Assembly (NCBI GenBank): GCA_951406725.2
Contig: OX597815.1
Location: 211,296,001-211,360,000, forward strand
Length of the DNA: 64,000 bases
From: Octopus vulgaris
Lineage: Eukaryota
Direction: 5' to 3'
The notes under the pieces: model-generated
What the model was told of the DNA's origin: nothing
Databases searched by the model: none
The model's input: the letters and a program-made list of their open reading frames with translations, nothing else
Part shown: positions 9,659 through 47,083 of the stretch, one piece after another
How positions within the stretch are numbered: the stretch's first letter is position 1
Layout of the letters: the number at the start of each line of letters is the position of its first letter
Program-made: the position numbers and the translations under genes

Positions 9659-9750
9659 GCATATATATATATATATATACATATATATATTTATGTATGT
9701 ATACGCATATATGTTATATATATATATATATATATAAATAGTCATTACTG

Positions 9751-9902
9751 TAGTCAAGATAAAACTCTGAGTTTCAGATGCCGAAGTGGAAATCAGAGTT
9801 TTATCTTGACTACCGAGTAATGTAACATATTGTATAGATAATTTCCTCTATTTACATAATATTGAGGTCTCTTTCTTTCTTTTGTTATCTTACCGTTTTA
9901 TC
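9751..9902. mobile_element. Internally deleted copy of the foldback element at 46279-46538
   Basis: Near-identical blocks TAGTCAAGATAAAACTCTGAGTTTCAGATGCCGAAGTGGAAATC and TCAGAGTTTTATCTTGACTACCGAGTAATG...GTTATCTTACCGTTTTA. Confidence 0.85.
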
Positions 9903-10094
9903 AATATATATAAATATATATATATATATATTTACATACGCATATATGTACATATATGTATATGTACATATATATACACATATATATGTATATAGACGTG
10001 TATATATACATATATATATAAATATATATCGGAGTAAGCACATACAAGTGAAACAAGTTGGAAAAAAGAGTACTCAAATACCAGAGGTGGAGTA

Positions 10095-10277
10095 ATATGC
10101 TTTATTTAAAAGCAGCAGAAATATAACAAAAGCTGTTACTCAGAGTTTCATGTTCCCGTTCGTCGGACAGTTTTGTTATATTTGGTTCTATTTTAACAAA
10201 ACTGTCCGAAGAACGGGAACGTGAAGCTCCGAGTAACAGCTTTTGTTACATTTCTGCTGCTTTTAAATAAAGTATAT
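10095..10277. repeat. Foldback palindrome, ~84 bp arms with ~15 nt spacer; putative inverted Penelope pLTR pair
   Basis: Arms 10095-10178 and 10194-10277 are reverse complements with about 6 mismatches. Confidence 0.9.
10133..10170 (-). ncRNA. Putative minimal type I hammerhead ribozyme, CCGANGA core variant (mirror copy 10202-10239 +)
   Basis: CUGU-CCGACGA-ACG GGAA C(A/G)U-GAAA-CUC U GAG-UA-ACAG: stems I, II and III plus a GUA cleavage triplet. Confidence 0.6.
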
Positions 10278-16610: not shown

Positions 16611-19129
16611 TTTCTAAATTTTATTGCTACCCTGGAATTTATTGATAATGATATAATGATTTTTGGCTAATTTTGGAAGAAAATCGGCATTTTTTGTATT
16701 TGCTGCCGATAAAAAAACATGCTTGTGAGGTGGATTTTGAAAAATTATAACATATAAACACAAGGCATATTCTGTATCGCCCCATCTTTATATGTTAATT
16801 TTGGCTTTCCTGCTGACAAGAGCTTCACCAAGTAAATTATTTTATTTGCTGAATATTGCTTGAAACCATGGTACAGGAAATAAAGGGTAAATGTTTTTAT
16901 TTTTCATTCCTTTTCAAAATTACACCTAATAGTGGTTTGGAGTTTAACTACTCCTTCTAGTGGGTCAGATGTCCTGTTATGGCCATCTCTTGTGTGTTTA
17001 AATGTACACTGTATTTTTATATGAATAATATATCGTGTATTGACTAGTCTTTTTCTTCTTGCTAGACAACTGGTAGCAAAGAATGGTGCAGCCTCCTGGC
17101 TTACTAGTCCCCAGTCAAACCATCCAAACTATGCCAGCATGGAAAACAAATGTTAGATGATGATGATGATGATGATGACATACATCTATGTATATCAGCA
17201 CTGGCATGGCTGTGTATTTAAGAGATTATTTTCACAACCATATGGCTTCTGATCCAGTCTTACAGTCTTGGATAAGTGTCCTCTTCTACAACCCCAGGTT
17301 AATCAATGCCTCTGAGTGAAATTTAATGAACAGAAACTGTAAAGATGATCATTATACACATACTGATACACAGTTATGAATGAATGAATGAAATGCATGT
17401 ATGTATGAATGTATGAATGAGAGTGTGTGCGTGTATGAGTGAAAATGTATGTGTTTGTCTCTGCCTATCTTCATATTGACACTGGTGACACTAGTGATCT
17501 ACTCCTATGCCCATTACAATCAAGGCATCACATAGACCATTATTTCAGTATATGAAAACTTGTGGGATGAAATTATATTAACTGAAAACAGATACAGATT
17601 GGCTTCAGGGAGTGCATCCAGCCATAGAATACCGAAGCAATACTTCTTGACCAAACTTTGAGGAAAAAATATGGCCATAAAAATGAAAATGAAAAATTTC
17701 TACATTTTATTTCCATCAATTTCATCTCCGATCTTTGTCAGTTGTTTTATTCCTGAATGTATGCAGAGAACTGAGAAGATTCATAGATCAAATCTATTAG
17801 TTTCTGTTTTCACATTTAGGAATAAGACATCTGATGATCAGTAATTAGCTAATCAAAACATAGTGTATATCTTAGTATAAAGAAAAAAGTTTCTGGTTTA
17901 ATAATCCAAAAACTTATAATTGTATTAATTACAAATTATCTCAGGTATTTATACAGACATTTAATTAATTACGGTGGCTGGTATTAGGCAACTATGTAAT
18001 TAAATTTTATCTGTAGTGTCTTAATTTATATTGCTATCTTTGTCAGCTTTTCATCGACTGAGGATTGCTAGTATCTATTCACATACACAAATAATACAGT
18101 TTTTTCGAGACTCAGGTATATTGGTTTGCCAACTTACATATCCACATAATATATATTGAGCCAATAAAGAAGCCAAGTCTACCACAAATAATATCCTGCC
18201 AGCTTAAGAAAAAGTTAGCAGATATGGCCCCAGGTTCCTTGCAAGTAGAAAAAAAAAGACAAAAGTCATGGTTGGATAGTCTGCTCAGTCAGGGTTGATC
18301 TGAGACTGAACAGGTAGCATAAATATGACCTTGACATCACGTGATAGTTGTAAATGAGTGTCACCATCATGCAAGTGGTGTTTGTCCTTTCCAATCTTTC
18401 AAGAAAACTTGCTTACTTGAAATCAAGTGAGGGCTGGTGACAGGAAGGGCATCCATCCAAAAAGAACCTGCCTCAATAAATACTGTCCAACCCATGCAAG
18501 TATGGAAAAGTAGACATCAATATGATTATGATGATGATGATGCTATACCATATAATGCTACTTATCTTACAGCCATTCCATTTGATGGCAAGTAGACTTA
18601 ATTAATCATCGAGCCTTTACAGATCAAAGACCTGATCTAAATGATTGCAACAAGATCCAAGATGCCAGTGAGAGTGCTAAACTCAGTAGAGATTAAATTT
18701 ACCAACCAAGTAATATATGGAAAGATCTGAACTCAGACAACAAAGATCCAGAACAAATACTGCAAGGCATCTACTCTGGCATTCTGACATCATCATCATC
18801 ATCATCATTATTTAATGTCCGTCTTCCATTCATGGGTTGGACAGTTTGACAGGAGAGGGGACTAGTTGATTACAGTGACTCTAGTGTTTCACTGGTACTT
18901 AGTTTATCGACCCTGCAAAAAGATTAAAGGCAAAGTCGACCTAGGTAGAGTTTGAACTCAGAACCCAAAGACTGACAAAGTGCTGCTAAACATTTCACCC
19001 AGCATGCTAATGATTCTACCAGCTCACAAAATAAATAATATGAAAACTATAGAAAGCTGTATAACACCTGTTATAGAAATCAAAGACACAAAACAAAATA
19101 TAAACAGAAGTGACAAGAAAACATCTTAC

Positions 19130-19250
19130 CACTGCCTTTAGTTTCATTGAATTGATCTTTTATTGTCTTGCATGTGGAGCCATCTCCATGACATACACCA
19201 CATCGGTCCTCCTTGGCTGAAGATTCCAGAACCCAGTCGCAGCCAACACG
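19130..19250 (-). CDS. ADAMTS exon: end of Cys-rich domain and start of spacer, RVGCDWVLESSAKEDRCGVCHGDGSTCKTIKDQFNETKGS(G)
   Basis: TTCCTTACAG acceptor, GTAAGA donor; 121 nt, phase 0/1. VGCD..EDRCGVCxGDGSTC motif; lies within ORF 19080-19310. Confidence 0.95.
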
Positions 19251-19484
19251 CTGTAAGGAAGAAGAAAGTTTATTTTTCAACAGTGAATATGCAATGTGTA
19301 TAAGTGGCAATATGAATAGGAGACATGGGCAATGGAAACGACAACGAGGTTGACAACAAGGAGAAACTTGATGATGATGATTACAATGGTAGAGGTGAAG
19401 ATGATGGTAATGAGGACAATTATTGTCATATTGGTGAAAAGACTCAAAATTTGCGTGTATAAAATCAAAGTAGGTGATTATTAA

Positions 19485-19878
19485 TCTTTATATATAAAAA
19501 TGAGGTTGTGTGCTGTCTGTCTCCTACGATTTAGATTCCTAACTACTCCCACATTTTGCGGTGCAGTTTAACCAAAACCGGGTATCTTATAGTTGTGATT
19601 CACATCGAGCCCTTCTGGGTATTAGCGCACGTCTACGATGAGTCTACGATTTAAAAAAAAATTTACCATCAATTTTTTCCATTTTTAATGCATTTTTGGC
19701 ATATATAAGGGAAGTAACTCTCTAAAAAGTTATTAAATCTCAGAACGCAAAAAGCTACAGTAACACCCCCCACTTTGTGGTTAGCCATATTGAGATGGCT
19801 ATTATACTTTATATCTCTAAAAATGCTTATATAGTTATTTCCCTTACAAACCCGAGCAACGCCGGGCGATACTGCTAG
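19485..19878 (+). mobile_element. Non-autonomous Helitron
   Basis: A|TC 5' end, subterminal CCCGAGCAACGCCGGG hairpin, CTAG|T 3' end, no TSD. Confidence 0.8.
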
Positions 19879-43636: not shown

Positions 43637-44790
43637 CATGGTTTGGACAAAAATAATGGAAACATCTAGCACCATAGCATCATAATTTTAAAATATCTAT
43701 AAAACCATCAAAAGCTTGTTTACTTTTTTTTTATTTATTATTAGTGTTGCTTAATATGTTTTGATAAAATTGCTGTTTCTTTTTGGATATCATGAAATAA
43801 AGGTAATTAAAATTCATTAAAATGACACATCTATCGGACTTTCGAAGCAGTCAAATTGTTGATGCTCATATAGCAGGTGCTAGCGTAACAAAAATAGCTG
43901 AAATGTTTGGTATATCAAGAAGTGCTGTCTCAAAAGTAATGACAGCCTTTAAGAAAGAGGGAAAAACCTCGTCGTCGAAACAAAACTCCAGAAGAAAACC
44001 AAAACTTTCAGATAGGGACAGTCGGACTCTTTCAGGCATTGATAGAAAGGACCACAGAAGTATAGTTCCCAAAATTACTGCAGAGCTTAATGACCACCTC
44101 GAGAATGCAGTTTCAACAAAAACTGTTCACCAAGAGCTGCATAAGGCCACATTTTATGGGAGGGCTGCAATTAGAAAACCACTTACTTTCAAAAACAAAC
44201 GTTGCAAAGCGTTTAGAGTGGAATAAAACCCTACGGAACTGGTCCCTAGAGCAGTGGAAGAATGTTATTTTCTTAGACGAGTCATCCTTTACCCTATTTC
44301 CGACCACCGGCCATGTATACATGTGGAGACATCAAAAAGAAGCATTTGACCCAGGCTGCCTTCTTCTAAGTGTTAAACATGGAGAAGGATCTGTTTTGAC
44401 CTGAGAGGCTATATCTTGGAAATCCACTGGCCCAATGGTTTCCCTTCATGGCAGAATTAATAGTCAACACTATTTAAGCATTTTATCTGATCAAATTCAT
44501 CCTCCAGTTGCAGAACTGTTTCCAGGGAAAAACCCAACCTTTCATGATAATAATGCACCAATTCACACGGCAAAAGTTATTACTGAATGGCATGAGGAAC
44601 ATTCTAGTGAAGTTGAACATCTTATCTAGCCACCACAGTCCCCAGATCTCAATATTATTGAATATTTATGGTGCATTTTAGGAAAACAAGTAAGGAGTCG
44701 AATTCTCCACCATCATCACTACAAGAATTGGAGACTGTTTTAGCTGAAGAATGGACTTGTACAATTCAAACTTGGTACAAGTCCATACCT
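43637..44790 (+). mobile_element. Tc1-like transposon fossil (DD36E spacing); transposase pseudogene 43822-~44790
   Basis: TA-CATGGTTTGGACAAAA left end; HTH region (ORF 43822); VIFLDES, FHDNNAPIH and SPDLNIIE motifs; a frameshift and two W-to-stop changes; right TIR not found. Confidence 0.88.
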
Positions 44791-46241: not shown

Positions 46242-46278
<37 letters not shown>

Positions 46279-46281
<3 letters not shown>

Positions 46282-46538
46282 TAAAACGGTAAGATAACAA
46301 AAGAAAGAAAGAGACCTCAATATTATGTAAATAGAGGAAATTTATCTATACAATATGTTACATTACTCGGTAGTCAAGATAAAACTCTGAGTTTCAGATG
46401 CCGAAGTGGAAATCCACAACACCATCTCTTCGGTTATCTGGTTATGTTTCCAGATAACCGAAGAGATGGTGTTGTGGATTTCCACTTCGGCATCTGAAAC
46501 TCAGAGTTTTATCTTGACTATCGAGTAATGTAACATAT
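46279..46538. mobile_element. Foldback element with near-perfect ~89 bp arms (46353-46441 / 46450-46538); putative inverted Penelope pLTRs
   Basis: Reverse-complement arms with one visible mismatch and an 8 nt loop; flanked by (TA)n; second copy at 9751. Confidence 0.88.
46452..46514 (+). ncRNA. Putative hammerhead ribozyme, CCGANGA variant (mirror copy 46377-46439 -)
   Basis: AGAUAA-CCGAAGA-GAUG...CAUC-U-GAAA-CUC A GAG-UU-UUAUCU. Confidence 0.55.
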
Positions 46539-47083
46539 ATAGATATATATATTATAATGAATAAGGAATGAAAATGATGTCTATGTGACGATCAAGAATG
46601 GCTGTTTATATTCTACTTATGTTACACATATGGAGATTGTTAAATGTTGCATAACAATAAAACAAAATGTCCATTTCATTTCATCAGGTGTTTTGTAGAA
46701 TCATCAAAACAGTTCGCATCTTACTACTTCATTAACAAGGCTTTGACCAACCTGAAATTATTGTAGAAGACAATTGCCAAAAGTCCCACTGTGCAACACT
46801 TTGGGAAAAATGTCTTCTTTGTGCAAGTTTTTGGAAGCAAACTTCTTGAAAGCACACCCGCATCCCCTACATCTCCTTCTTGCCTTGCATAACAAAAAGT
46901 ACAAGTCTTTATGTTCTATTGTTATTTGTGGGAATTTGATTTAGTAATGTATTTATGTAAAGAAATAGATTGCTCAATAATAGGATAAGGTTTATGAAAT
47001 AAATGACATAGGTTTTCATAACACTGTACTTTTTCAGAAGTAGTACTGCAAATATTAAATGATAAATATGTAAAATTATATAG

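Follow-up and report, generated by a model that had tools for sequence, protein, structure and literature searches.

Is the hairpin at positions 46353-46538 of the window (64,000 nt of Octopus vulgaris DNA, contig OX597815.1, 211,296,001 to 211,360,000, forward strand) a foldback system with a variant hammerhead ribozyme of its own, and what does the C that it carries at core position 4 (C4) mean, where the canonical hammerhead has U (U4)? The near-perfect 89-bp hairpin described in the first-pass annotation was borne out: 46353-46441 pairs with 46450-46538 over 89 bp around an 8-nt loop, with a single G/T mismatch (46370/46521), and its predicted minimum free energy of -170.3 kcal/mol (z -32) was reached in 0 of 200 shuffles. 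The motif AGAUAA-CCGAAGA-GAUG...CAUC-U-GAAA-CUC-A-GAG-U-U-UUAUCU lies at 46439-46377 on the minus strand (with C3 at 46433 and the cut predicted 3' of 46383) and at 46452-46514 on the plus strand, where both the descriptor match and folding place stem I at 46452-46457/46509-46514, the core CCGAAGA at 46458-46464 (C4 being 46459), stem II at 46465-46494 plus one additional U, GAAA at 46496-46499, the palindromic stem III ACUC-A-GAGU at 46499-46507, and H17 as U at 46508. The motif is present in both arms, as had been claimed, but as one motif duplicated, with one copy per strand, and not as two independent instances; what had been marked as a branch in stem II is the hairpin itself, continued irregularly. 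A type I descriptor with position 4 left free matched only these two sites in the whole window, 46458 (+) and 46433 (-), as against 0.02 matches per shuffled window when any core was allowed and none in 50 when the hairpin's own core was required, and the pattern CCGANGA..GAAAC.....GTH was found 3 times in the window with 0 expected.

The two arms are of unequal length. The long arm (46278-46445, minus strand) matches the final 168 nt of a full unit of a Hydra-clade Penelope-like element (PLE) at locus L099, with 98.8% identity over 168 nt. It is the 3' end (pLTR) of such an element, 5'-truncated just upstream of the hammerhead and reaching the long version of the 3' end, +155 from C3. The element runs about 75 bp further left than the hairpin, to 46278, on one arm only; this tail of about 60-75 nt (46278-46340, minus strand) is recognised from the sequence and from the existence of two 3'-end classes. 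The short arm (46450-46538, plus strand) repeats this 3' end in inverted and 5'-truncated form, without the tail, at 95% identity to the unit over 102 nt, and alignment of the arms places the inversion junction at the 8-nt loop (46442-46449). On the left the insertion is flanked by a (TA)n target microsatellite (46244-46277), as are most of the copies displayed, and its right end also abuts a short TA run at about 46539-46553. The hairpin, in short, is no separate foldback system: it consists of the terminal 3' part of a young Hydra-clade PLE and an inverted 5'-truncated copy of that part, inserted in (TA)n. By sequence match, a second insertion of the same family lies at about 9745-9904 (minus strand), with the inversion junction inside stem II and the core lost. 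The window also holds a likely exon of an ADAMTS-like gene at 19080-19487 (minus strand; PF19236, E 0.0007, just under the cut-off) and a fragment of a Tc1-like transposase at 43807-44226 (plus strand).

A DNA search of the octopus's own genome (2.8 Gb) returned 627 candidates, and the 40 that were scored were 96-100% identical to the query. Among the 20 loci listed, 12 contain an inverted copy and 7 extend upstream, 6 of them into a shared 3' UTR and coding sequence and 1 into the UTR alone. A link to Penelope RT/GIY-YIG ORFs had been suspected, and indeed copies continue upstream into such an ORF. At L099, motifs at 318 and 2907, 2,589 nt apart, flank an ORF of 708 aa; the period of the unit is again 2,589 bp, and L294 holds four units head to tail. 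A non-LTR retrozyme, which consists of non-coding tandem repeats of about 170-400 nt, is ruled out by this unit of 2.6 kb with coding capacity. Internal stops are missing from 100 of the 103 scored protein matches and the full 717-codon frame is present in 10 of the 103, a sample biased towards intactness in that it consists of the best-scoring copies.

The single 708-aa ORF encodes an RT followed by a C-terminal GIY-YIG domain, with YKDD and IIY..KYVG present; its C-terminal 403 aa match PF01541 weakly (E 0.028, below the cut-off), a Pfam search with the whole protein gave no match, and the protein is 42-52% identical to the 120 homologues listed. According to Craig et al. (2021; PMC8557442), the Hydra clade is marked by RWK, DKT, CxCx5C, the lack of CCHH, and CxxC/CxH. 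The protein of this lineage (lineage A) has RWK (KRMRWKAFFF), DKT in place of DKG (FSDKTKNLY), the linker CSCRNKELC for CxCx5C, no Cys between IIY and YVG and hence no CCHH, and CGLC..E..N..CPH, that is, CxxC and CxH around a conserved E and N, near the C-terminus. The unit, too, is that of the C-terminal EN+ PLEs of the Hydra clade: it is shorter than 3 kb, forms pLTR tandems, is flanked by TA, and shares with the elements of that paper, which also describes an inverted 5'-truncated copy and a one-sided tail, the (TA)n target, these two features, a type I hammerhead in the pLTR, a short palindromic stem III, frequently a further base ahead of GAAA, and a U at position 17. Our RT tree was built from Hydra-like relatives only, with no published reference or outgroup, and the resemblance of the N-terminus to Hydra-1_Obim was judged by eye only. 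The hammerhead sequence of lineage A differs from that of Hydra-1_oBim, which resembles a separate O. vulgaris family (L177).

The 3' ends of the copies fall into two classes, +155 from C3 in 35 and +81 or +93 in 24 of 70 motif copies (a sample that includes overlapping loci), and both are represented in the window copy, one per arm. All copies include both sides of the predicted cut site, and neither class of 3' end falls there. By eye, 25 head-to-head pairs account for 50 of the first 100 young-family motifs listed. These findings bear on a reading that we consider extremely improbable, namely that the locus is a MITE-like DNA transposon or a microRNA-type hairpin with a chance likeness to a hammerhead. 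Such a reading would fit a near-perfect hairpin in TA and the weak microRNA matches, below the gathering score, among the matches listed; it does not fit the unequal arms, the variation of the junction from copy to copy, the many copies that continue into the RT ORF, or the fact that the motif occupies the position of Hydra hammerheads, and the ORF-linked copies refute it for a MITE or microRNA hairpin as such. The head-to-head junctions crowd just upstream of the hammerhead, with a gap below 50 nt in 6 of 25 lineage-A pairs and in 14 of 23 pairs of a second lineage, U4 and C4 alike (both counts by eye, from pair spacings, as BLAST 5'-end distances can be shortened by divergence); this crowding may reflect a transcription start or a stop of the RT at the base of the extended stem I.

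That second lineage (B) is represented in the window by the element at 10030-10260, which the first-pass annotation had called the 10095 element and held to be otherwise unrelated to the hairpin. Family comparison assigns it to an older C4 subfamily with the same layout. Lineage B leads to full ORFs of 727 codons, and because the protein is 44% identical to that of lineage A, the two families are distant relatives, both of them Hydra-type PLEs. In the lineage-B protein (L250:1501-3681, minus strand) the Hydra linker is reduced, CxC being replaced by CN; the unit measures about 3.35-3.4 kb, owing to a 3' UTR of some 1.1 kb.

The motif itself has the parts of a type I hammerhead in the right order: a stem I of 6 bp, a stem II of 4 bp plus the extension, and a stem III of 3 bp as a monomer or 4+4 bp as a dimer. 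Of the canonical core (C3 U4 G5 A6 N7 G8 A9, G12 A13 A14, A15.1-U16.1, H17), everything is present except U4, which is C. The Rfam hammerhead models matched neither the C4 motif nor a U4 relative and so do not discriminate between them. Folding of the full-unit RNA predicts stems I and II. Stem III alone is predicted to be unstable (+2.1 kcal/mol) and its self-duplex stable (-7.4 kcal/mol), predicted values that would fit the dimer model of Cervera and de la Peña (2014; PMC4209133). The monomer hammerhead fold is predicted to lie 4.8 kcal/mol above the ensemble, and likewise 4.8 kcal/mol in the U4 relative; having C4 does not make the fold costlier (4.8, against 7.4 with U in that position). 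A lock in which C4 would hold the RNA off-fold, CCGAAG pairing with CUUCGG in stem II, is not the predicted fold, and stems I and II stay. In a transcript of the foldback the hammerhead fold is predicted to be about 98 kcal/mol less favourable than the 89-bp duplex, and because the transcript is predicted to form that duplex, RNA ends at 46508/46509 would be a poor test of cutting.

The frequency of the motif is far above chance, as the first-pass annotation had supposed. Across the genome, CCGANGA..GAAAC.....GT matched 13,093 times, against 1,612 for its control, and the same pattern with CTGA 25,655 times, against 2,314 for its control. With stem III fixed as ACTC-N-GAGT, we counted 10,552 motifs with C4, 8,801 with U4 and 392 with a purine at position 4, and 1,345 with a base other than G5 and 684 with a base other than G8 (the latter only with U before C3). 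Because 10,552 C4 and 8,801 U4 motifs stand against 392 with a purine, C4 is a family-level state, and the earlier view that it does not stem from decay of single copies holds. C4 is fixed at the level of families, yet it is not conserved. Older lineage-A subfamilies have T at this position in 94, C in 4 and A in 2 of the first 100 of 2,994 matches, and the youngest subfamily has C in 97, T in 2 and G in 1 of the first 100 of 3,752 (both by eye); divergence from the majority within lineage A is 12.6% (14 copies), 4.8% (12) and 0.5% (41). The 12 young C4 rows sampled form one clade with support of 100/100, nested in U4 rows. Among the first 100 lineage-B matches listed, 51 make up one identical U4 subfamily, and the other 49 have C (44), T (2) or G (3); in the tree of this lineage U4 rows sit among C4 rows, with weak support (81/84). 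All 72 lineage-B motifs in 48 loci chosen by ORF match, some of them overlapping, were U4 and belong to the intact-ORF subfamily of lineage B, the query having come from the U4 subfamily itself. A third family (C), small and old, with ACUC-N-GAGU (loci L124, L133 and L304-L316; 106 matches), is a roughly even mix of C4 and U4. A further repeat, in two copies (L296:2218, minus strand, and L297:2061, minus strand), has the core CCGAUGA with intact stems, here a 5-bp stem I and ACAC-G-GUGU as stem III, and tblastn found no Hydra ORF near these motifs.

Outside this genome the picture is uniform. Hydra-like metagenome loci carry a motif in 63 of 78 cases and none in 15, and among the 52 distinct motifs 51 matched as U4; the lone C4 match, at L321, belongs to a neighbouring element and L321's own motif is U4, so that U4 is found in 52 of 52. 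The candidate for a C4 Hydra element outside the O. vulgaris genome was thus rejected, the C4 belonging to a neighbouring DKG-type ORF; on that metagenome contig a C4 hammerhead motif lies at L321:2161-2210, 3' of a 640-aa DKG-type PLE-like ORF, with a single copy seen. All 25 Hydra families tabulated by Craig et al. (2021) (26 rows) have the CUGA core. C4 is therefore absent from the 25 published families and the 52 metagenomic motifs, 77 in all from outside this genome (two sets that may overlap). Both states occur in each of lineages A, B and C. Stem III in the form ACUC-N-GAGU is found in 9 of the 52 distinct metagenome motifs listed and, as ACTC-N-GAGT, in 5 of the 25 published Hydra families (Craig et al., 2021). 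Independent conservation of C4 in two families, as proposed in the first-pass annotation, is contradicted by the presence of U4 and C4 within each lineage, with switches that ran in opposite ways. Nor can we uphold a variant hammerhead class or an undescribed system: Hydra PLEs have already been reported with this architecture, ACUC-N-GAGU included, and U4C occurs naturally in a viroid.

Two other sources of the variation were considered. CpG decay of C4 to U4 was rejected for lineage A, where CUG is found in 87 of 100 older copies with no CCA among them and other CpGs are intact, and also for the identical U4 subfamily of lineage B; it may account for part of the mixed state in the old family C. 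A-to-I editing as a source of U4C was rejected as well, just 3 of 14 older-to-young changes being A>G or T>C.

Our preferred explanation, to which we give a probability of about 60%, is that a young PLE 3' end was joined head-to-head to an inverted copy in (TA)n, and that a recent U-to-C change at position 4 likely weakens cutting and is likely tolerated, as new copies would come from uncut RNA. The element identity, the ORF, the tandem and inverted layout, the two 3' ends and the position-4 state of each subfamily are its observed part. For the rest, the RT-endonuclease would nick both strands of AT-rich DNA and reverse transcription would start at two sites inside the RNA, so that only one of the arms would have the tail, by analogy with an in vitro study of another PLE (Frangieh, 2024; PMC11167929); joining of the two cDNAs at their truncated ends would produce the foldback. 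In full tandem transcripts the motif would fold stems I and II, formation of stem III would need a partner motif or the element's protein, and a slow cut would follow GUU; in the foldback copy itself the 89-bp duplex is predicted to block the ribozyme fold. If new copies are made from uncut RNA, weak cutting would be tolerated. By analogy, then, the C4 motif is most likely a weakly cutting, tolerated variant, the activity figures cited for U4C coming from other hammerheads. What plain tolerance leaves unexplained is that C4 is found here in three or more Hydra-type lineages and in another repeat besides, but in 0 of 52 distinct Hydra-like motifs elsewhere; because U4 is invariant across this wide outside sample, cutting should normally matter.

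The same element could also carry a C4 motif that is catalytically dead and persists by its youth, or as a structure for packaging or reverse transcription. In lineage A, C4 came with 13 other changes over 185 compared positions, some of which weaken the stem II extension; the intact-ORF subfamily of lineage B is U4; and another PLE can do without cutting in vitro (PMC11167929), all as a dead motif would have it. We nevertheless regard this as unlikely: in lineage B, C4 persisted across several subfamilies whose N7, loop II, loop III and position 11.1 changed and whose other core positions did not; motifs with a purine at position 4 (392), or without G5 (1,345) or G8 (684, restricted pattern), are much scarcer and, among the first 100 listed, resemble scattered decay; and the viroid U4C retains some activity (PMC3088659). 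Quite unlikely, in our view, is the opposite reading, in which C4 is a selected, fully working or tuned variant of this animal lineage, rescued by dimers, extended stem I/II contacts or the element's protein; of all the readings it comes nearest to that of the first-pass annotation. It draws on the excess of C4 over U4 among ACUC-N-GAGU motifs (10,552 vs 8,801), on the recurrence of C4 in families unrelated in sequence, on the fact that only pyrimidines reached family level, and on the CpG that C4 creates, kept while the same master lost other CpGs. Yet both states occur in each lineage, B reverted to U, the C4 families share no compensating core change, and selection cannot be shown from one or two events per lineage. 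Copy counts stem from a few master elements and not from independent events, and the independent switches are too few to decide for or against selection.

U4C considerably lowers activity in vitro and still permits viroid infectivity (Perreault, 2011; PMC3088659, which cites Ambros and Flores, 1998, as the original report). This is the same natural substitution as in lineage A; in the viroid it is rare and of reduced activity, whereas in the youngest lineage-A subfamily it is fixed across thousands of retroelement copies in the genome. Single mutants in CUGA were low in a mutational scan (Roberts, 2023; PMC9901934). The lineage-A motif resembles the minimal type I hammerheads of metazoan PLEs in its pLTR location, its palindromic stem III suited to dimers, its dual opposite-strand motifs and its high variability within a genome, and low in vitro activity is reported for those hammerheads; the core variant in the text of that paper is U3-A8, not C4 (Cervera and de la Peña, 2014). 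For the Anolis PLE Poseidon, ribozyme-dead mutants inserted normally in vitro and cutting depended on the element's protein; nicking and extension took place on both DNA strands, and the tail was delimited by two internal start sites (Frangieh, 2024). Lineage A is like Poseidon in the two ends that define the tail and in its AT-rich targets, and the use of uncut RNA as template by Poseidon is what we liken our proposal to; unlike lineage A, Poseidon belongs to another clade, has the canonical core and begins its ORF inside the hammerhead. Unlike the published Hydra families with their CUGA (Craig et al., 2021), the youngest lineage-A subfamily has CCGA. The element type, the foldback and the architecture have been described before. 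Dimers of PLE hammerheads are reportedly the subject of work by Lünse et al. from 2017. Our literature search found no fixed U4C hammerhead in retroelements, a result on which Lünse 2017, which may report position-4 variants, or the supplements of Cervera 2014 may bear, and the main text of a 2026 octopus repeat annotation (PMC13282606) contains neither "Hydra" nor "ribozyme".

The role of the hammerhead in PLEs is considered open (Craig et al., 2021; Frangieh, 2024). In this genome two Hydra-type families have amplified recently and have intact ORFs, one U4 and one C4, each with older subfamilies in the opposite state, and this pair offers a natural comparison of whether cutting helps, hinders or does not affect spread. 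One speculation, which we hold to be doubtful, is that position 4 is a tuning knob that cephalopod PLEs have flipped repeatedly between U (fast) and C (slow). If so, a slow ribozyme would leave more uncut template and favour amplification, and this would explain both the thousands of C4 copies in several unrelated families here and the absence of C4 from Hydra elements elsewhere. For ribozyme surveys, descriptors fixed on CUGANGA overlook about 10,500 motifs in this genome. The commonest match to the CTGA pattern on C1 (L152-L178) is a repeat that reads CUGAUGA-AGGCUG...CAGCC-GAAAC, with stem I unpaired in type I order.
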